Origin: Escherichia coli
Lineage (GTDB): Bacteria > Pseudomonadota > Gammaproteobacteria > Enterobacterales > Enterobacteriaceae
DNA: 64,000 nucleotides
Reading direction: 5' to 3' (one strand)
Assembly: GCF_024502345.1 (NCBI RefSeq)
Contig: NZ_JALDNN010000001.1
Made by a program: the position numbers and the translations under genes. Positions 3,019 through 64,000 of this stretch are shown piece by piece. The stretch's first letter is position 1; the number at the start of each line of letters is the position of its first letter. The notes under the pieces are model-generated. The model worked only from the letters and a program-made list of their open reading frames with translations, did not search any database and was not told the origin of the DNA.

Positions 3019-3222
3019 ATGAGTCTGTTTCCCGTTATCGTGGTGTTTGGGCTGTCCTTCCCACCGATATTTTTTGAATTGCTTTTATCACTGGCGATTT
3101 TCTGGCTGGTGCGCCGGGTACTTGTGCCAACAGGTATCTACGACTTTGTCTGGCATCCGGCGTTGTTCAACACCGCGCTCTATTGCTGCTTGTTTTATTT
3201 GATATCGCGACTGTTCGTTTGA
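3019..3222 (+). CDS. aaeX: AaeX small membrane protein
   Basis: 67-aa product [14 protein letters not shown]...; ATG at 3019 chosen over the longer track ORF starting at 2950. Confidence 0.85.
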
Positions 3223-3229
3223 GGTTGAA

Positions 3230-4162
3230 GTGAAAACACTAATAAGAAAATTCTCCCGTACGGCCATCACGGTCGTATTAGTCATTCTGGCCTTCATCGC
3301 AATTTTTAATGCCTGGGTCTATTACACCGAATCCCCCTGGACGCGTGACGCGCGCTTTAGCGCTGACGTCGTTGCGATCGCGCCGGACGTTTCTGGACTC
3401 ATTACCCAGGTGAATGTTCATGATAACCAGCTGGTGAAAAAAGGACAGATACTGTTCACCATCGACCAGCCGCGCTATCAAAAGGCGCTTGAGGAAGCGC
3501 AAGCCGATGTTGCTTATTATCAGGTACTGGCACAGGAGAAACGCCAGGAGGCCGGACGTCGTAACCGTCTCGGTGTGCAGGCGATGTCTCGCGAAGAGAT
3601 CGACCAGGCTAACAACGTACTACAAACGGTTCTGCATCAGTTAGCGAAAGCGCAGGCGACCCGCGATCTGGCAAAACTGGATCTTGAACGCACGGTGATC
3701 CGCGCGCCAGCAGATGGCTGGGTGACCAACCTCAACGTCTATACCGGTGAGTTTATTACTCGAGGATCAACGGCGGTTGCGCTGGTGAAACAGAACTCCT
3801 TCTATGTACTGGCCTATATGGAAGAAACTAAGCTGGAAGGGGTGCGTCCGGGGTATCGTGCAGAGATCACGCCGCTTGGCAGTAACAAAGTGCTGAAAGG
3901 GACTGTTGATAGTGTTGCCGCTGGGGTCACCAACGCCAGCAGCACGCGTGACGACAAAGGGATGGCGACCATCGACTCTAACCTTGAATGGGTGCGTTTG
4001 GCGCAACGTGTTCCGGTTCGTATTCGTCTCGACAACCAGCAAGAGAACATCTGGCCTGCGGGCACCACTGCTACAGTGGTGGTCACTGGCAAACAAGATC
4101 GCGACGAAAGCCAGGATTCGTTCTTCCGTAAAATGGCCCATCGCCTGCGTGAGTTTGGTTAA
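3230..4162 (+). CDS. aaeA: p-hydroxybenzoic acid efflux pump, membrane fusion subunit
   Basis: ORF track 310 aa; GTG start at 3230; N-terminal TM segment then HlyD-like coiled coil. Confidence 0.92.
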
Positions 4163-4167
4163 TCACG

Positions 4168-6135
4168 ATGGGTATTTTCTCCATTGCTAACCAACATATT
4201 CGCTTTGCGGTAAAACTGGCGACCGCCATTGTACTGGCGCTGTTTGTTGGCTTTCACTTCCAGCTGGAAACGCCACGCTGGGCGGTACTGACAGCGGCGA
4301 TTGTTGCCGCCGGTCCGGCCTTTGCTGCGGGAGGTGAACCGTATTCTGGCGCTATTCGCTATCGTGGCTTTTTGCGCATCATCGGCACATTTATTGGCTG
4401 TATTGCCGGACTGGTGATCATCATTGCGATGATCCGCGCACCATTATTGATGATTCTGGTGTGCTGTATCTGGGCTGGTTTTTGTACCTGGATATCCTCG
4501 CTGGTACGAATAGAAAACTCGTACGCGTGGGGGCTGGCCGGTTATACCGCGCTGATCATTGTGATCACCATTCAGCCGGAACCATTGCTTACGCCGCAGT
4601 TTGCCGTCGAACGTTGTAGCGAGATCGTTATCGGTATTGTGTGTGCGATTATGGCGGATTTGCTCTTTTCTCCGCGATCGATCAAACAAGAAGTGGCTCG
4701 AGAGCTGGAAAGTTTGCTGGTCGCGCAATATCAATTAATGCAACTCTGTATCAAGCATGGCGATGGTGAAGTTGTCGATAAAGCCTGGGGCGACCTGGTG
4801 CGACGCACCACGGCGCTACAAGGCATGCGCAGCAACCTGAATATGGAATCTTCCCGCTGGGCGCGGGCCAATCGACGTTTAAAAGCGATCAATACGCTAT
4901 CGCTGACGCTGATTACCCAATCCTGCGAAACTTATCTTATTCAGAATACGCGCCCGGAATTGATCACTGATACTTTCCGCGAATTTTTTGACACGCCGGT
5001 AGAAACCGCGCAGGACGTCCACAAGCAGCTCAAACGCCTGCGGAGAGTTATCGCCTGGACCGGGGAACGGGAAACGCCTGTCACCATTTATAGCTGGGTC
5101 GCGGCGGCAACGCGTTATCAGCTTCTCAAGCGCGGCGTTATCAGTAACACAAAAATCAACGCCACCGAAGAAGAGATCCTGCAAGGCGAACCGGAAGTAA
5201 AAGTAGAGTCAGCCGAACGTCATCATGCAATGGTTAACTTCTGGCGAACCACACTTTCCTGCATTCTGGGCACGCTTTTCTGGCTGTGGACGGGCTGGAC
5301 TTCCGGCAGTGGTGCAATGGTGATGATTGCGGTCGTGACGTCACTGGCAATGCGTTTGCCGAATCCACGCATGGTGGCGATCGACTTCATCTATGGGACG
5401 CTGGCCGCGCTGCCGTTAGGGCTGCTCTACTTTTTGGTGATTATCCCTAATACCCAACAGAGCATGTTGCTGCTGTGTATTAGCCTGGCAGTGCTGGGAT
5501 TCTTCCTCGGTATAGAAGTACAGAAACGGCGACTGGGCTCGATGGGGGCACTGGCCAGCACCATAAATATTATCGTGCTGGATAACCCGATGACTTTCCA
5601 TTTCAGTCAGTTTCTCGACAGCGCATTAGGGCAAATCGTCGGCTGTGTGCTCGCGTTCACCGTTATTTTGCTGGTGCGGGATAAATCGCGCGACAGGACC
5701 GGACGTGTACTGCTTAATCAGTTTGTTTCTGCCGCTGTTTCCGCGATGACTACCAATGTGGCACGTCGTAAAGAGAACCACCTCCCGGCACTTTATCAGC
5801 AGCTGTTTTTGCTGATGAATAAGTTCCCAGGGGATTTGCCGAAATTTCGCCTGGCGCTGACGATGATTATCGCGCACCAGCGCCTGCGTGATGCGCCGAT
5901 CCCGGTTAACGAGGATTTATCGGCGTTTCACCGACAAATGCGCCGCACAGCAGACCATGTGATATCTGCCCGTAGCGATGATAAACGTCGTCGGTACTTT
6001 GGCCAGTTGCTGGAAGAACTGGAAATCTACCAGGAAAAGCTACGCATCTGGCAAGCGCCACCGCAGGTGACGGAACCGGTTCATCGGCTGGCGGGGATGC
6101 TCCATAAGTATCAACATGCGTTGACCGATAGTTAG
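4168..6135 (+). CDS. aaeB: p-hydroxybenzoic acid efflux pump, inner membrane subunit
   Basis: ORF track 655 aa, polytopic membrane protein, directly downstream of aaeA. Confidence 0.93.
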
Positions 6136-6138
6136 GTC

Positions 6139-6168
6139 AAAACCGACGCCAAAAGTGTCGGTTTTTTC
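6139..6168 (+). terminator. Rho-independent terminator after aaeB
   Basis: Stem accgac/gtcggt followed by T6. Confidence 0.6.
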
Positions 6169-6226
6169 ATGGCTATACTTAGCGATGCACGGCAGAACTC
6201 GCCGCGAAACGTGACGGTGGCAACAG

Positions 6227-6499
6227 ATGAATATTTATACCTTTGATTTTGATGAGATTGAGAGTCAGGAGGATTTTTATCGTGACTTTAGCCAAACCTT
6301 TGGTCTGGCGAAAGATAAGGTACGCGATCTCGACTCACTATGGGATGTGTTAATGAACGATGTCCTGCCGCTACCACTTGAGATTGAATTTGTTCATCTG
6401 GGAGAGAAAACGCGTCGCCGTTTTGGCGCGTTAATATTGCTGTTTGATGAGGCAGAGGAAGAGCTGGAAGGGCATTTGCGTTTTAATGTTCGTCATTAG
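6227..6499 (+). CDS. yhcO: barstar-like ribonuclease inhibitor YhcO
   Basis: ORF track 90 aa, [21 protein letters not shown]...; barstar-like fold protein at this locus in E. coli. Confidence 0.85.
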
Positions 6500-6500
6500 C

Positions 6501-6529
6501 GCAAAAAAAAGCCCCCGAACCGGGGGCAA
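6501..6529 (-). terminator. Rho-independent terminator of yhcN (hairpin shared with the yhcO 3' end)
   Basis: gcccccgaaccgggggc hairpin at 6511..6527 with an A8 run on the plus strand, giving U8 after the hairpin on the minus strand. Confidence 0.7.
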
Positions 6530-6554
6530 TATCGTCGGACAAGACGATGAGGGT

Positions 6555-6818
6555 TTATTTGTACAGTTCAGCCGTAGCGTGCCAGGTGTCACCGCTACGA
6601 GCTTCAGTAATCTGGTAGGCCGTTGCGCCTTTCTCTTCCGCTTTTTTGTTCAGCATTTCACGCATATCCATTGGCGAAGACGCCACACCACTTACGGATA
6701 CGGTCCCGATTGCTTCACGATTTTGTGCTTGTGCAGCATCAATGGAGTCGGCAGCGAATGCACCGAAAGAGAGAACAGAAAGTACGCTTAATGCAGCAAC
6801 AGTGGTTTTGATTTTCAT
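6555..6818 (-). CDS. yhcN: DUF1471 periplasmic stress-induced protein YhcN
   Basis: 87 aa with signal peptide MKIKTTVAALSVLSVLSFGAFA; ATG at 6818 with a GAGG Shine-Dalgarno, preferred to the longer track ORF. Confidence 0.85.
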   Translation of the reverse strand: MKIKTTVAALSVLSVLSFGAFAADSIDAAQAQNREAIGTVSVSGVASSPMDMREMLNKKAEEKGATAYQITEARSGDTWHATAELYK

Positions 6819-7182
6819 GATTTTTACCTCGACATAATCTTTTAGCTGGGCCTTTGTTTCGTGACCCATATCACAAAATCAAGTATACACTAATTATTGA
6901 GCTAATTAATACCGCGCTAACTGTTTCAGTTGATACTAAGTGTTAAAAATGTGAATTTTAATAACAAAAAAGTATTAAAAACACGGTTATTTATTATAAA
7001 TACCAGTTTTTTCAATCAGATAATGAATTTTGCATAATGTGCTTTTTTTACCGTATGTATTCACTATGTGAATGATATGTCGCGGTAAAACGCACTATTC
7101 GTTAAATGAATCGCAGGGGAAAGCAGGGGATTGAGAGGGATAAGCAACATTTTCCCCGCCGCCAGAAGCGACGGGGCAGAGA

Positions 7183-7656
<474 letters not shown>

Positions 7657-7675
7657 TCACCCGATATGGTGGTTG

Positions 7676-7715
7676 ATACAACATTATTGTGCATACAGAT
7701 GAATTTTTATGCAAA
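7676..7715. promoter_or_regulatory. candidate ARG box pair (ArgR autoregulation operator)
   Basis: ATGAATTTTTATGCA resembles the ARG box consensus TNTGAATWWWWATTCANW, about 45-60 bp upstream of the argR ATG. Confidence 0.45.
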
Positions 7716-8012
7716 CAGTCAGCCCTGAAGAAGGCTGAAATAATGTTATGAAAGAGCGGGATTTTATCAAATTTCGTTATTGAGAAACATGCCTGCGTCA
7801 CGGCATGCAAATTCTGCTTAAAAGTAAATTAATTGTTATCAAATTGATGTTGTTTTGGCTGAACGGTAGGGTATATTGTCACCACCTGTTGGAATGTTGC
7901 GCTAATGCATAAGCGACTGTTAATTACGTAAGTTAGGTTCCTGATTACGGCAATTAAATGCATAAACGCTAAACTTGCGTGACTACACATTCTTGAGATG
8001 TGGTCATTGTAA

Positions 8013-9026
<1,014 letters not shown>

Positions 9027-9046
9027 TTGATTAGCGGATAATAAAA

Positions 9047-9078
9047 AACCGGAGCACAGACTCCGGTTTTTTGTTTTG
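9047..9078 (+). terminator. Rho-independent terminator after mdh
   Basis: ccggagcacagactccgg hairpin followed by a T-run. Confidence 0.75.
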
Positions 9079-9088
9079 AGCGCACGAC

Positions 9089-10156
9089 TCAATTGGTTGC
9101 CGGATATTCCTGAATGGTGACCTGCAGCGTTAACTGCTTATCATCACGCATCACTACAACCGGGATCACCGAACCAGGGCGAATTTCTGCCACCTGATCC
9201 ATCGTCTCCAGAGCAGAGATGGCCGGTTTGTTATCCACCGAAATAATCAGATCGTTGACCTGAATACCCGCATTCGCCGCCGGGCCGTCAGGTGACACTT
9301 CATTAACCACGATCCCTTGCAGTTGATCTATACCACCGCCCTGCGCGTGCAGTGGTGCGATCTCGCGTCCGCCGATACCAATGTAGCCGCGGATCACGCG
9401 ACCATCGCGGATCAGCTTATCCATAATTTTGGTTGCTAACTGGAAAGGAATCGCAAAGCCGATACCTTCCGGCGTTTCGCCATCGTTACTCTTATCAAAC
9501 GACAGCGTGTTAATGCCCATCAGTTCGCCCAGCGAGTTCACCAGCGCGCCGCCAGAGTTACCGTGGTTAATGGAAGCATCGGTTTGTAGGAAGTTTTGCC
9601 GCCCGGTCGGGTTCAGACCGATTCGACCCGTGGCACTAATAATCCCCTGGGTAATGGTCTGCCCGAGGTTGTACGGGTTACCGATCGCCAGTACCACGTC
9701 GCCAATGTGCGGTACGCGACGTGCATTAATTGGAATGGTAGGTAAACCGCCAGTGGCATTAATTTTAAGTACCGCCAGATCGGTTAGAGAGTCAGATCCC
9801 ACCAGCAATGCTTCAAATACACGTCCATCCTGTAAGGCGACGATGATCTGATCGGCGTCGTTGATGACGTGTTTATTGGTGATGATATAACCGCGTTGAT
9901 CCATGATTACACCGGATCCCAGGGTGCGGATCTCAAGCTGGTTGTGAGAGTTGGTGTTCAAACCACGGTTGTAAACGTTAACCACCGCTGGCGCGGCGCG
10001 GCGAACCGCCAGATTATAACTGGCAGGCGTCTCATCGGTACTGTCAAATTGCGGAGTGGAAAGCGGGTTAAGGCTGCGCAGCGAAGGCATGGCAACCAGC
10101 AGAATAGCGCCGACAATTAATCCAATCGCAACGGAACGTAAGAGCTTCACAAACAT
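9089..10156 (-). CDS. degS: inner-membrane serine endoprotease DegS (sigma-E stress sensor)
   Basis: ORF track 355 aa; trypsin-like protease plus one PDZ domain. Confidence 0.95.
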   Translation of the reverse strand: MFVKLLRSVAIGLIVGAILLVAMPSLRSLNPLSTPQFDSTDETPASYNLAVRRAAPAVVNVYNRGLNTNSHNQLEIRTLGSGVIMDQRGYIITNKHVINDADQIIVALQDGRVFEALLVGSDSLTDLAVLKINATGGLPTIPINARRVPHIGDVVLAIGNPYNLGQTITQGIISATGRIGLNPTGRQNFLQTDASINHGNSGGALVNSLGELMGINTLSFDKSNDGETPEGIGFAIPFQLATKIMDKLIRDGRVIRGYIGIGGREIAPLHAQGGGIDQLQGIVVNEVSPDGPAANAGIQVNDLIISVDNKPAISALETMDQVAEIRPGSVIPVVVMRDDKQLTLQVTIQEYPATN

Positions 10157-10245
10157 GATGGAGGCGTCATTAAAAAAGGGAACGGCAGCAGCATACCACG
10201 AGTTAACCGGACATCACACGTCAGCCTGATGCCCGGTTTACGACA

Positions 10246-11613
10246 TTAACGCATCAGCAGATAGATGCTTTCATTGCCGCGTACAATTTGCAGGGCGATG
10301 ATGGCCGGTTTTGCCGTCAGCACTTTACGCATTTCAGCAATCGAGTTCACCCGATCGCGGTTGACGCCAATGATCACATCGTCTTTTTGCAAGCCAGCCT
10401 GAGCAGCTGGGCTTCCTTTGACAACTTCATCGATCTTAATACCTTTGCCGCCATCTTTTAGCTGACCATCGCTCAACGTTGCACCTTCCAGCGCTGGCGT
10501 GATCATTTCAGCGCTGGCCGACGAAGAGGTGCTGGTATCGAGCGTCACTTCTACTTCCAGTGGTTTGCCGTTACGCAGCAGGCCAAGCTTCACTTTCGTG
10601 CCCGGCTCGGTGGTCGCGATACGAGAGCGCAACTCAGCAAAGCTATTCAGCGGTTTGCCGTTGAGGCTGGTAATAATATCGCCCGCTTTGACGCCCGCTT
10701 TCGCCGAGCCAGAACCTGGCAACACTTCGCTGACAAACGCGCCACGCTGCACGTCAAGGTTGAAGGCTTTGGCGATATCGGCACTCATCTCGGTGCCTTT
10801 GATGCCTAACAAACCGCGTTTGATTTCACCAAAGTCGATAAGCTGCTGCGCCAGTGTTCGCGCCATATTACTGGGGATGGCAAATCCAATTCCGACGCTC
10901 CCGCCGCCAGGCGCAAGGATTGCAGTGTTGATGCCAATTAACTCTCCGTTAAGGTTTAACAGTGCACCGCCGGAGTTACCGCGGTTAATGGAAGCATCTG
11001 TCTGGATAAAGTTTTCCAGACCTTCAAGATTCAACCCGCTGCGTCCTAATGCGGAAACAATGCCAGAGGTGGCGGTTTGCCCAAGGCCAAATGGGTTACC
11101 GACCGCCACGGCAAAATCACCGACGCGCAATTTATCGGAGTCGGCAATAGCGATTTGCGTTAATTTGCTCGGGTTTTGAATTTGCAACAGGGCGATATCG
11201 CTCTGGTCATCGCTACCAATCAGTTTTGCATCAAACTCGCGCCCATCATTGAGCTGAATACTGATTTTCTGTGCCTGATTAATCACATGGTTGTTGGTCA
11301 GCACATAGCCTTTACTGGCGTTGATGATGACACCGGAGCCTAAACCTTCGAAGGGTTGTGCAGGTTGATCCGGTAAATCATCACCAAAAAACTTTTTGAA
11401 TTCTTCCGGGATTTTCTGTCCCTGACTGGCCGTTCCTTCCACCCGTACGCTCACCACTGCCGGAAGCACTTTTTCCAGCATTGGAGCCAGACTGGGGAGG
11501 GGGGCCTGATCGGCAACCTGGCCTGGAATCGACGCGACGGCCTGAAATGACGCCGAGAGAGTTAACCCGACACTTAACGCTAATGCACTCAACAGCTGGG
11601 TTTGTTTTTTCAT
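10246..11613 (-). CDS. degQ: periplasmic serine endoprotease DegQ
   Basis: 455 aa from MKKQTQLLSALALSVGLTLSASFQAVA signal peptide; protease plus two PDZ domains. Confidence 0.95.
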   Translation of the reverse strand: MKKQTQLLSALALSVGLTLSASFQAVASIPGQVADQAPLPSLAPMLEKVLPAVVSVRVEGTASQGQKIPEEFKKFFGDDLPDQPAQPFEGLGSGVIINASKGYVLTNNHVINQAQKISIQLNDGREFDAKLIGSDDQSDIALLQIQNPSKLTQIAIADSDKLRVGDFAVAVGNPFGLGQTATSGIVSALGRSGLNLEGLENFIQTDASINRGNSGGALLNLNGELIGINTAILAPGGGSVGIGFAIPSNMARTLAQQLIDFGEIKRGLLGIKGTEMSADIAKAFNLDVQRGAFVSEVLPGSGSAKAGVKAGDIITSLNGKPLNSFAELRSRIATTEPGTKVKLGLLRNGKPLEVEVTLDTSTSSSASAEMITPALEGATLSDGQLKDGGKGIKIDEVVKGSPAAQAGLQKDDVIIGVNRDRVNSIAEMRKVLTAKPAIIALQIVRGNESIYLLMR

Positions 11614-11766
11614 TATTCCTGCTCTCGTACCTGAATGATAAGAAAAGAGATTCAAAACAGTTTGATGTTATTGAATTTTCAGACGGCTAACAATGAGACA
11701 CCAGATTAAATGATAGTCGGGGAGGGAGAGAAGAGGAGGGCGCAATGGCTGCGCCCGAAAAATAAA

Positions 11767-12165
11767 TTAGTCGCGCTTCGCGCCAGTACGCAGCAGGCCG
11801 GATGCGCCTTCAGAATAGTCGCGAGGCATCTGCACCGGTGCCTGATCGTTGCTGGCTTCAGACTCTGCCAGACGATTACGGAACGGGTTTGCTTCAGCAG
11901 ACAGTTCCGGCAGCAGGCTGCTGGAGCTTTTCGCCATGTGCTGATACAGCTGGCGATAGTCGTGCGCCATGGTATCCAGTAATTCCGCGCTGCGGGCAAA
12001 GTGGCTAACCAGCTCTTCGCGATACTCGTCCAGTTCAGCTTTATTCTTTTCCAGTTCGTACTGCAACGCCTGTTGCTGGCGTAGTTTACGATTACCAAAA
12101 CGCATGGCCACAGCACCAATAATGATGCCGACGACTAACCCAATTAGCGCATATTCCCAGGTCAT
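11767..12165 (-). CDS. zapG: cell division protein ZapG (YhcB)
   Basis: 132 aa from MTWEYALIGLVVGIIIG..., N-terminal TM helix plus coiled coil. Confidence 0.85.
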   Translation of the reverse strand: MTWEYALIGLVVGIIIGAVAMRFGNRKLRQQQALQYELEKNKAELDEYREELVSHFARSAELLDTMAHDYRQLYQHMAKSSSSLLPELSAEANPFRNRLAESEASNDQAPVQMPRDYSEGASGLLRTGAKRD

Positions 12166-12358
12166 GAACATCTCCCGTTGTCTTTTGTTTCCGTAGGGTG
12201 TTGGCTTCAGGCTCCATGCCTGCGGCTGATTATGCCACTATAACCGTTAATTCCACAGAAGTGGAATCCCGACTGCATATCGCGTAGTGTAGAACGGCCT
12301 TTTTTTCGTCAACCGTGAACAACGGCGCACCGATTATTCAAGGAATAACAATAAGATC

Positions 12359-19228: not shown

Positions 19229-20122
19229 ATGGCAACGAATTTACGTGGCGTAATGGCTGCACTCCTGACTCCTTTTGATCAACAACAAGCACTGGATAAA
19301 GCGAGTCTGCGCCGCCTGGTTCAGTTCAATATTCAGCAGGGCATTGACGGTTTATACGTGGGTGGTTCGACCGGCGAAGCCTTTGTACAAAGCCTTTCCG
19401 AGCGTGAACAGGTACTGGAAATCGTCGCCGAAGAGGCGAAAGGTAAGATTAAACTCATCGCCCACGTCGGTTGCGTCAGCACCGCCGAAAGCCAACAACT
19501 TGCGGCATCGGCTAAACGTTATGGCTTCGATGCCGTCTCCGCCGTCACACCGTTCTACTATCCTTTCAGCTTTGAAGAACACTGCGATCACTATCGGGCA
19601 ATTATTGATTCGGCGGATGGTTTGCCGATGGTGGTGTACAACATTCCAGCCCTGAGCGGGGTAAAACTGACCCTGGATCAGATCAACACCTTGGTTACGC
19701 TGCCTGGTGTCGGCGCGCTGAAACAGACCTCTGGCGATCTCTATCAGATGGAACAGATCCGTCGTGAACATCCTGATCTGGTGCTCTATAACGGTTACGA
19801 CGAAATCTTCGCTTCCGGCTTGCTGGCGGGCGCAGACGGCGGTATCGGCAGTACTTACAATATCATGGGCTGGCGCTATCAGGGGATCGTGAAGGCGCTG
19901 AAAGAAGGCGATATCCAGACCGCGCAGAAACTGCAAACTGAGTGCAATAAAGTCATTGATTTACTGATCAAAACGGGCGTATTCCGCGGCCTGAAAACTG
20001 TTCTGCATTATATGGATGTTGTTTCTGTGCCGCTGTGCCGCAAACCGTTTGGTCCGGTAGATGAAAAATATCTGCCAGAACTGAAGGCGCTGGCCCAGCA
20101 GTTGATGCAAGAGCGCGGGTGA
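19229..20122 (+). CDS. nanA: N-acetylneuraminate lyase
   Basis: ORF track 297 aa. Confidence 0.96.
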
Positions 20123-20230: not shown

Positions 20231-21721
20231 ATGAGTACTACAACCCAGAATATCCCGTGGTATCGCCATCTCAATCGTGCACAATGGCGGGCATTTTCCG
20301 TTGCCTGGTTGGGATATCTGCTTGACGGTTTTGATTTCGTTTTAATCGCCCTGGTACTCACCGAAGTACAAGGTGAATTCGGGCTGACGACGGTGCAGGC
20401 GGCAAGTCTGATCTCCGCAGCCTTTATCTCTCGCTGGTTCGGCGGCCTGATGCTCGGCGCTATGGGTGACCGCTACGGGCGTCGTCTGGCAATGGTCACC
20501 AGCATCGTTCTCTTCTCGGCCGGGACGCTGGCCTGCGGCTTTGCGCCAGGCTACATCACCATGTTTATCGCTCGTCTGGTCATCGGCATGGGGATGGCGG
20601 GTGAATACGGTTCCAGCGCCACCTATGTCATTGAAAGCTGGCCAAAACATCTGCGTAACAAAGCCAGTGGCTTTCTGATTTCAGGCTTCTCTGTGGGGGC
20701 CGTCGTTGCCGCTCAGGTCTACAGCTTGGTGGTTCCGGTCTGGGGCTGGCGTGCGCTGTTCTTTATCGGCATTTTGCCAATCATCTTTGCTCTCTGGCTG
20801 CGTAAAAACATCCCGGAAGCGGAAGACTGGAAAGAGAAACACGCAGGTAAAGCACCAGTACGCACAATGGTGGATATTCTCTACCGTGGTGAACATCGCG
20901 TTGCCAATATCGTAATGACACTGGCGGCGGCTACTGCGCTGTGGTTCTGCTTCGCCGGTAACCTGCAAAATGCCGCGATCGTCGCTGTTCTTGGGCTGTT
21001 ATGCGCCGCAATCTTTATCAGCTTTATGGTGCAGAGTACGGGCAAACGCTGGCCAACTGGCGTAATGCTGATGGTGGTCGTGTTGTTTGCTTTCCTCTAC
21101 TCATGGCCGATTCAGGCGCTGCTGCCAACGTATCTGAAAACCGATCTGGCTTATAACCCGCATACTGTCGCCAATGTGCTGTTCTTTAGTGGCTTTGGCG
21201 CGGCGGTGGGGTGCTGCGTCGGTGGCTTCCTCGGTGACTGGCTGGGAACCCGCAAAGCGTACGTTTGTAGTCTGTTGGCCTCGCAGCTGCTGATTATTCC
21301 GGTATTTGCGATTGGCGGTGCAAACGTCTGGGTGCTCGGTCTGTTACTGTTCTTCCAGCAAATGCTTGGACAAGGGATCGCCGGGATCTTACCAAAACTG
21401 ATTGGCGGTTATTTCGATACCGACCAGCGTGCAGCGGGCCTGGGCTTTACCTACAACGTTGGCGCATTGGGCGGTGCACTGGCCCCAATCATCGGCGCGT
21501 TGATCGCTCAACGTCTGGATCTGGGTACTGCGCTGGCATCGCTCTCGTTCAGTCTGACATTTGTGGTGATCCTGCTGATTGGTCTGGATATGCCTTCCCG
21601 CGTTCAGCGTTGGCTGCGCCTGGAAGCATTGCGTACTCATGACGCTATCGACGGCAAACCATTTAGCGGTGCCGTGCCATTTGGCAGCGCCAAAAACGAT
21701 TTAGTCAAAACCAAAAGTTAA
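20231..21721 (+). CDS. nanT: sialic acid:H+ symporter (MFS)
   Basis: 496 aa from [22 protein letters not shown]...; track ORF trimmed by 10 codons. Confidence 0.95.
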
Positions 21722-63164: not shown

Positions 63165-63251
63165 GCCGAGGTGGTGGAATTGGTAGACACGCTACCTTGA
63201 GGTGGTAGTGCCCAATAGGGCTTACGGGTTCAAGTCCCGTCCTCGGTACCA
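63165..63251 (+). tRNA. leuU: tRNA-Leu, anticodon GAG
   Basis: 87 nt GCCGAGGTGGTGGAATTGGTAGACACGCTACCTTGAGGTGGTAG...GGTACCA with long variable arm and encoded CCA; 14 nt after secG. Confidence 0.95.
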
Positions 63252-63263
63252 AATTCCAGAAAA

Positions 63264-63290
63264 GAGACGCTGAAAAGCGTCTTTTTTCGT
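63264..63290 (+). terminator. Rho-independent terminator after leuU
   Basis: agacgctgaaaagcgtct hairpin followed by T6. Confidence 0.8.
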
Positions 63291-63325
63291 TTTATAAGCC
63301 AGGTTAAGTATTCTTAATTTGATAA

Positions 63326-64000
63326 CTATTTACCTAGGCATAAATCTGTTTCATCTAGTTTGAAATCTGTAATTTCTAACTTTTGCATTATTACCGGAAG
63401 CACTTGGTGAATTATTCTCATGCCAGTAAGGATCTCGTTCATGTATATATCTGGATGAATGCGAGATTTATTGAAATCGAAACGTTCGGCTTCTGCTGCA
63501 ACGCTAAGTTGGTCAGCGGTGTTATAAACCATTTCCAGAAGTTCGGCTCTTAACGGAATTCCCGCCCTGAATGCCATCATCTTGAGTTGATTCAACCAAT
63601 TTTCGTAGTCTTTTTTAACTCTATAACGAAATTCTTTAAAGTTTGACGCAACAGGAGTATCAATTTCAATTTTGCATGCAGCAAGTGATATCAATGAACT
63701 CTGAATATTGATGGCTTCGCTTGAATAGACATCTAAATCGTCGTCCTGAATCAACTCATCAACATATGCTATGTAGAAACCATAAACATCATTCAGAGCA
63801 TGATAAATATCATTAATTACAGAACAATGAGCATTGCTCTCTAATATCTCCCAAAAAGCCTCTTCTTCATCAGCATTATCGTCGTCAATATTAAGTCCTT
63901 CAGGAAAGGAAAGAGGTGTAGGAAAACCTATTCGCTTTAATACATCAATTGTTTCTTCAACCAAAAAACCATCTTCGTCAGTAAGAAGTTGTGTTATATA
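63326..64000 (-). CDS. C-terminal part (at least 224 aa) of an acidic hypothetical protein; its start lies beyond the window edge
   Basis: Minus-strand frame is open from the window edge (..YITQLLTDEDGF..) to the stop at 63326; the track's start at 63964 is a TTG; AT-rich; convergent on leuU; not the yhbX I expect here. Confidence 0.5.
   Translation of the reverse strand, partial: YITQLLTDEDGFLVEETIDVLKRIGFPTPLSFPEGLNIDDDNADEEEAFWEILESNAHCSVINDIYHALNDVYGFYIAYVDELIQDDDLDVYSSEAINIQSSLISLAACKIEIDTPVASNFKEFRYRVKKDYENWLNQLKMMAFRAGIPLRAELLEMVYNTADQLSVAAEAERFDFNKSRIHPDIYMNEILTGMRIIHQVLPVIMQKLEITDFKLDETDLCLGK

Follow-up and report, generated by a model that had tools for sequence, protein, structure and literature searches.

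A low-G+C, one-gene cassette between leuU and argG of Escherichia coli encodes an XRE-type protein with a seemingly undescribed helical domain and predicted self-repression

The final 707 bp of the 64,000-nt stretch of Escherichia coli DNA analyzed here (the window, from contig NZ_JALDNN010000001.1) form the left part of a cassette that carries a single gene and that is a minority allele of a multi-allelic slot bounded by the leuU terminator and the argG stop codon. The encoded protein is 317 amino acids long and consists of an N-terminal XRE-type helix-turn-helix (HTH) followed by a roughly 250-residue, all-helical acidic domain. The best overall explanation of these data, to which we assign a probability of about 55%, is that the locus is a complete and functional one-gene accessory cassette encoding a self-repressing XRE protein with an undescribed helical domain. 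In kind, the element appears to join something known, an XRE-type autoregulator, to a new domain within a self-contained one-gene unit.

The fixed left neighbor of the variable slot is leuU, a tRNA-Leu(GAG) gene on the plus strand at positions 63165 to 63251. It was identified with ARAGORN and by Rfam, where the tRNA alone was matched (52.8 bits), and its sequence does not differ among E. coli, Salmonella and C. koseri (100% identity). A G+C-rich hairpin with T-runs on both strands follows at positions 63259 to 63288 (terminator scan, GF3-3 locus 19967-19996 and 19990-19973). This hairpin terminates secG-leuU, and both K-12 and Salmonella retain it as far as the cassette breakpoint. T-runs are found on both sides and a terminator score was obtained on both strands; the same hairpin probably also terminates the convergent regulator gene, which has its stop codon 38 nt away. 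The initial annotation of this DNA had reported a shift toward high A+T past the secG-leuU terminator, and the G+C content indeed falls from about 0.52 to about 0.35; in 300-nt windows, values of 0.47-0.57 upstream give way to 0.34-0.39 from position 63250 on.

On the minus strand, a single open frame of 224 codons extends from position 64000 to a stop codon at 63326-63328 and ends in ...DLCLGK. The peptide quoted by the initial annotation, which had proposed at least 224 C-terminal residues of an opposite-strand protein, lies exactly in this frame. Following the gene past position 64000, as had been recommended there, yielded a gene of 317 codons that is the only one before argG. The full gene was read from E. 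coli GF3-3, which is 100% identical over the 708 bases (window coordinates equal the identical GF3-3 locus coordinates plus 43292). In this strain the regulator is the sole gene between leuU and argG, and it is annotated only as “helix-turn-helix domain-containing protein.” By translation and annotation (WP_001012978.1), the window contains the 3' part of the gene at positions 63326 to 64000 on the minus strand, that is, the stop codon and codons 94-317. The HTH (residues about 6-60) belongs to codons 1-93, which fall outside the window at the equivalent of 64001-64279, and the right end of the cassette falls at the equivalent of 64460, past the window and within the last codons of argG.

The limits of the cassette were set by a blastn comparison of the K-12 and GF3-3 loci. 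Homology to K-12 stops at window position 63293/63294 (GF3-3 locus 20001), 42 nt past leuU and behind the terminator, and resumes at GF3-3 locus 21169, so that a 1167-bp one-gene cassette of GC 0.37 takes the position where K-12 has a 2048-bp yhbX segment; positions 63294 to 64000 hold the left 707 bp of this cassette. The view that the window does not encode YhbX was correct, and the start that had been given for the unusual region (63293) coincides with the point where homology ends. In K-12, yhbX (b3173) lies on the leuU strand, opposite to the regulator, and the slot and its breakpoints are common to both states. The yhbX product is annotated as a phosphoethanolamine transferase or a sulfatase-like hydrolase and is unrelated to the regulator protein. 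The yhbX segment has a GC content of 0.43, against 0.51 for the flanks.

The suggestion that the locus varies among strains was borne out by a survey of 5426 complete E. coli genomes. The cassette was present, in each case at a single chromosomal place, in 236 of them (4.3%), and yhbX was present over at least 80% of its length in 5167, showing that the two slot states are alternatives. The gene is absent from K-12 and is not a core gene of most E. coli. Every one of the 236 copies is full length, with an identity of at least 99.5% in 228 of them. One argG allele (791 genomes at an identity of 99% or more) was found with either slot state, which implies that the states are swapped by recombination within lineages. 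K-12, being devoid of the regulator gene, offers an easy knock-in test bed.

A few details of the E. coli copies deserve mention. Carrier strains include E110019 as well as GF3-3. Exceptions to a single intact copy are rare and concern one genome each (those listed are NZ_LR883965.1, NZ_CP157165.1 and NZ_CP010235.1): an IS1 inside the gene in NZ_LR883965.1 (3539503-3540986), a gene split into two CDS, and a genome with two matching places. The right breakpoint, past the window, lies inside argG itself (GF3-3 locus 21169-21177; K-12 locus 3973-3981), and the last two ArgG residues vary with the slot allele, the protein ending in ...NKVK in this strain, ...NKGQ in K-12 and ...NKGK in Salmonella. 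A 1485-bp contig (JAIJJM010000762.1) deposited within a “MAG: Collinsella sp.” (Actinobacteria) matches the E. coli cassette at 100% identity and is almost certainly mis-binned E. coli DNA.

Outside E. coli, the gene was found in the same slot and in the same orientation in Salmonella enterica, C. koseri and an Enterobacter, with amino acid identities of 71%, 73% and 68%, respectively, as well as in another Escherichia species, the flanks of which match those of E. coli at 92% identity. The E. coli and Salmonella sequences are collinear through the cassette, including the intergenic DNA. Between E. coli and the sister Escherichia, the nucleotide identity of the gene (91.5%) is similar to that of argG (92.3%), glmM (91.2%), folP (92.2%) and ftsH (92.6%), with a dS of 0.25 and a dN/dS of 0.21 for the gene and a dS of 0.40-0.49 for the flanks. 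In a neighbor-joining tree, the slot copies formed one clade that followed the species order Enterobacter, (C. koseri, Salmonella), (both Escherichia); the remaining family was star-like and was not ordered by taxonomy. The common slot, the flank-equal divergence and the species-ordered tree point to an old resident that was inherited with its flanks and then lost or replaced in most E. coli, and show that the gene has occupied the slot since before Escherichia, Salmonella, Citrobacter and Enterobacter split. At this locus, a low GC content next to a tRNA gene is no sign of recent acquisition.

The slot is polymorphic in Salmonella as well, where it takes three states with identical breakpoints: a DUF1963 gene, the HTH regulator gene or no gene (about 264, 154 and 31 contigs, respectively, among the matches listed). 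The DUF1963 gene, the commonest state, encodes 354 amino acids on the leuU strand, and the empty state contains a REP-like palindromic element. All occupants of the slot have a GC content below that of the flanks. The GC3 of the regulator gene is 0.30-0.36 in enteric genomes of 51-53% GC, and has stayed low despite an apparently very long residence. Simple vertical descent does not account for such a persistently low GC3; selection for AT-richness or silencing by H-NS are possible causes. If this reconstruction holds, leuU-argG is a clean one-gene multi-allelic slot, filled by yhbX, the regulator, the DUF1963 gene or nothing, in which homologous recombination in the flanks has exchanged the alleles between genera over a very long time. 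Its history is then relevant to the question of how accessory genes can be maintained in the absence of mobile-element machinery.

The part of the protein that is encoded in the window agrees with its earlier description as soluble and rich in aspartate and glutamate. These 224 residues have a pI of 4.27, with 43 D+E versus 18 K+R, and contain no membrane-like segment (maximum Kyte-Doolittle 19-residue mean, 1.07). The initial annotation had further stated that the protein matched no recognized family, and this stood for the acidic part. We found no relative of the C-terminal domain in Pfam (with the protein and all 35 aligned members), NCBIfam, PADLOC or PHROGs, nor in the PDB by sequence or by profile, and this large acidic helical domain would seem to belong to no described family. 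The statement did not hold for the N-terminus, which lies outside the window and is a basic XRE/Cro-C1 HTH (Pfam HTH_3/HTH_19), recognized by family profiles and by fold; HTH_19 at residues 6-42 (E 5e-5) is the sole Pfam match of the protein. This N-terminus marks the protein as a DNA-binding regulator. The AlphaFold model of residues 58-317 is all helical with a pLDDT of 91.4. Source names are generic for all of the 1000+ gene copies, and a literature search on the locus, the protein, the operator and a hotspot or defense role of yhbX returned nothing relevant.

The gene is under purifying selection, with a dN/dS of 0.21 within Escherichia and of 0.05-0.09 between genera, where dS is saturated. 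A comparison of 84 diverse homologues identified as near-invariant W35, W75, G118, P122, P126, K233, P242 and E246, together with H275-P276-D277, Y279, E282 and R288. The last group lies in the most conserved stretch of the family, codons 273-301 (RIHPDIYMNEILTGMRIIHQVLPVIMQKL), which was delimited from alignments and is located at positions 63377 to 63463 on the minus strand; H275-P276-D277 (63449-63457) is 99% invariant, and the conservation of Y279, E282 and R288 is 94% or more. Codons 132-140 (DDDNADEEE; positions 63860 to 63886, minus strand) form an acidic loop that joins two helical parts, as judged from the alignment and pLDDT. This loop is gapped and variable in length in the family alignment, and its pLDDT is lower in both models.

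Several candidate identities for the protein were tried and set aside. The HPD triplet prompted a comparison with DnaJ J-domains, in which hhalign against six J-domains gave 1.3% probability over 9 aligned columns and Pfam DnaJ gave no match. HEPN (Rx4-6H), HD, HEXXH, Fic and PD-(D/E)xK motifs were not seen when the sequence was inspected by eye. Type II antitoxins (HigA, MqsA, Xre-RES, HipB) were rejected because the scores are below cut-off (NCBIfam HigA, 16.3 bits versus 47.7; MqsA, 15.3 versus 61.8) and no neighboring gene is conserved. In PADLOC-DB 2.0, the E. coli protein gave matches in the HTH region only (E >= 1.8e-4).

To examine the control of the family genes, we started from the 7-mers common to eight upstream regions, which gave TTTACTAAA and its complement and led to the palindrome TTTA(C/G)TAAA. 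Scanning the 200 nt that precede each of 50 family genes (10 kb in total) gave 62 exact sites, spread over 37 loci, against 4 in the other 554 kb of the same loci, which is about the number expected by chance, and 0.39 in shuffled upstream regions. Ahead of family genes the palindrome shows an enrichment of about 860-fold, and it is conserved across phyla. The most frequent center-to-center spacing is 21 bp (33 pairs), followed by 47, 68 and 26 bp, and the full layout comprises four sites, A to D, spaced 21, 26 and 21 bp. In well-preserved distal pairs, a TTGACA-like -35 hexamer lies between A and B. Site B falls in the -35/-10 spacer, sites C and D are in the leader just upstream of the ribosome-binding site, and one copy abuts the -35 element.

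This arrangement suggests a regulatory circuit in which the HTH protein would bind TTTA(C/G)TAAA, presumably as a dimer. As the conserved palindromes surround the promoter, the four-site layout is predicted to produce tight self-repression, and the pairing of sites at 21 bp suggests that the C-terminal domain may mediate cooperative oligomerization by joining dimers two helical turns apart. The sites of E. coli, Salmonella and C. koseri are centered about -83, -62, -36 and -16 from the start codon. All four E. coli copies have 2 mismatches (4 sites versus 1.0 expected, P 0.0125), and no sigma-70-like promoter upstream of the E. coli gene passed the scan. With operators this degenerate and no promoter passing the scan, regulation in the E. 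coli strain may be weaker or different. These E. coli promoter and operator elements lie past the window, at about 21003-21075 of the GF3-3 locus, and the 64-kb window itself contains no TTTA(C/G)TAAA palindrome.

The family comprises 745 homologues of uniform length (about 312-325 amino acids) and 52-58% identity in Gamma-, Beta-, Alpha- and Deltaproteobacteria, and a profile search gave 157 clusters at E <= 1e-30. Its distribution is very patchy, with 75 loci detected across 100,044 species genomes; Acidobacteria and Deferribacteres account for some of these loci. A tblastn search of 50,697 phage records gave no match, and 5 of 72,556 plasmids carried a member. In every host except the naturally AT-rich Photorhabdus, the gene has a GC content of 0.37-0.47 between flanks of 0.50-0.63. 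No neighbor gene is conserved in 54 loci; the sole recurring neighbor cluster, considered as a possible partner, proved to be made of unrelated aldehyde dehydrogenase paralogues. Neighbors are mostly housekeeping genes and not defense islands, and no prophage context was seen. Of about 52 loci, 8 independent ones have a tRNA or tmRNA gene within 500 bp, against about 0.9 expected (P 4e-6). Plasmid copies are located beside ParDE and a resolvase, or beside an integrase and Hok, that is, in plasmid stability regions. In a Buttiauxella sp. locus (9078-12331), two genes with no Pfam or NCBIfam match (335 and about 715 amino acids) are found directly downstream of the homologue, and the region also contains Fic, Hok and a transposase. 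The called coordinates of the larger of the two genes gave no clean translation. A Citrobacter freundii homologue (58% identical) adjoins a P4-type integrase in an island (3091-10951 of its locus) that holds DUF4942, CbtA/CbeA, RadC, DUF987 and an antirestriction gene. This island copy is sister to the leuU-slot clade, suggesting that the enteric slot copies derive from an island-borne ancestor.

Other explanations of the locus were weighed against the one that we favor. That the open frame arose by chance in an AT-rich spacer, or is a decaying pseudogene, could be argued from the degenerate promoter and operators of the E. coli gene. We regard this as next to impossible, given that all 236 copies are full length, that the 745 homologues are uniform in length, that purifying selection is strong and that the model has a pLDDT of 91.4. 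The initial annotation had proposed a horizontally acquired insert next to the tRNA gene. A recent insertion aimed at leuU in the lineage of this strain would account for the sharp GC drop directly past the tRNA terminator, the presence of the gene in only 4.3% of E. coli, the near identity of 228 of the 236 copies and the occurrence of the same argG allele with either state. Such an event would, however, be expected to leave other traces. The 1167-bp insert contains no integrase, RefSeq annotating nothing else there, and the direct repeat of the tRNA 3' end that had been named as a feature to look for (attL/attR) was not found in E. coli or in seven other tRNA/tmRNA-adjacent loci. The sister Escherichia has the gene in the slot, diverged like its core neighbors; Salmonella, C. 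koseri and Enterobacter share the slot; and the gene tree matches the species tree. On each of these points the cassette differs from tRNA-targeting integrative islands, and a recent acquisition appears very improbable.

Two further readings were considered. The gene could be the relic immunity repressor of a decayed prophage or of a tRNA-integrating island, kept to exclude related elements. The tendency of the genes to adjoin tRNA or tmRNA genes, the C. freundii homologue beside the P4-type integrase and the multi-operator layout all fit this reading. Like the CI-type repressors (lambda CI, 434, P22 C2), the protein couples an HTH to a C-terminal domain, and its palindromes are paired about two helical turns apart around a promoter. 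Unlike them, the family occurs in no phage genome searched, has neither an S24 peptidase nor another known repressor C-terminal domain, and has no prophage around it, and we consider this origin unlikely. The other reading is that of an ordinary accessory transcription factor, acting on its own promoter and on dispersed host promoters, whose helical domain binds a ligand or a protein signal and which plays no part in conflicts. The XRE HTH with its predicted autoregulatory operator agrees with this, as do the stable inheritance in enterics and the chromosomal location between housekeeping genes, with no hit among the 50,697 phage genomes and 5 among the 72,556 plasmids. Against it, only 4 further palindromes, about the chance number, were found in 554 kb and none in the 64-kb window, no conserved target gene is nearby, the distribution is very patchy, the GC content is persistently low, and a subclade fused to a TIR domain exists. 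This possibility is real, but we hold it to be the weaker account of the data when compared with a self-contained, self-repressing cassette. Small XRE/Cro autorepressors (Aca7, Aca1/2/10, HigA2, ImmR, the C-proteins of restriction-modification systems) differ from the cassette in being 60-130 amino acids long and in controlling an adjacent anti-CRISPR, toxin or restriction enzyme gene, whereas the E. coli protein has 317 amino acids, an extra domain of 250 residues and no partner gene in 54 loci.

A possible function for the self-repressing protein is hinted at by the TIR-fused subclade. It consists of six clusters (54-100% identical; 482-486 amino acids), including one from the isolate Stenotrophomonas sp. 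2619, in which a TIR domain is appended C-terminally to a complete family member. The TIR domain is matched by Pfam TIR_2 (E 3e-22), PADLOC PDC-S66 (E 1e-64) and ThsB (E 7e-37), and this subclade is the only part of the family with a PADLOC-DB match beyond generic HTH. The likeness to PDC-S66 and Thoeris ThsB is confined to the fused proteins; the E. coli protein has no TIR, and the N-terminal 330 residues of the fusion correspond to the regulator family and not to the N-terminus of PDC-S66. Fused members keep the HPD motif stretch as well as the Glu-containing WTNHELDG stretch. Bacterial TIR domains are typically NAD-consuming immune effectors, and it follows that, within a fusion, sensing or regulation can be the task of the helical domain.

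On this basis, the C-terminal domain with its invariant HPD..Y..E..R might be the sensor/effector module of an inter-genome conflict, defense or addiction system, which we propose tentatively and rate about as probable as a plain regulator with dispersed targets. A whole subclade carries a ThsB-like TIR and dosage appears strictly controlled, and family genes are patchy, low in GC, near tRNA genes, in islands and in plasmid stability regions, all of which led us to this proposal. Against a defense role, there is no defense-island context and no recognizable effector in the E. coli protein. That the protein acts as a one-protein conflict module, in which the helical domain would sense an invader or lost repression and then act itself, or through the TIR, against the invader or the cell, is a doubtful extension of this idea. 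Were it true, the leuU-argG slot would represent a long-lived single-gene immune polymorphism common to several enteric genera. More generally, if the proposals made here hold, they provide a first functional handle on a widespread, well-conserved domain that has neither a Pfam entry nor a solved relative: the operator is defined, the promoter layout comprises four sites, the invariant motif can be mutated, and a TIR fusion that occurs in nature points to immunity.

The genomic surroundings of the fused proteins could be read at one TIR-subclade locus (P0133), a 7.5-kb metagenome contig on which the gene is solitary and low in GC; at this locus, neither the palindrome upstream of the gene nor a ThsA-like partner was present. 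Two other unusual architectures were encountered. In P0236, from a 1437-bp ENA contig, a GIY-YIG nuclease domain takes the place of the HTH before the helical domain; it is a singleton that may be an assembly chimera and was given little weight. P0252, in which a CinA N-terminus precedes the C-terminus of the family, also looks like a chimera and was set aside.
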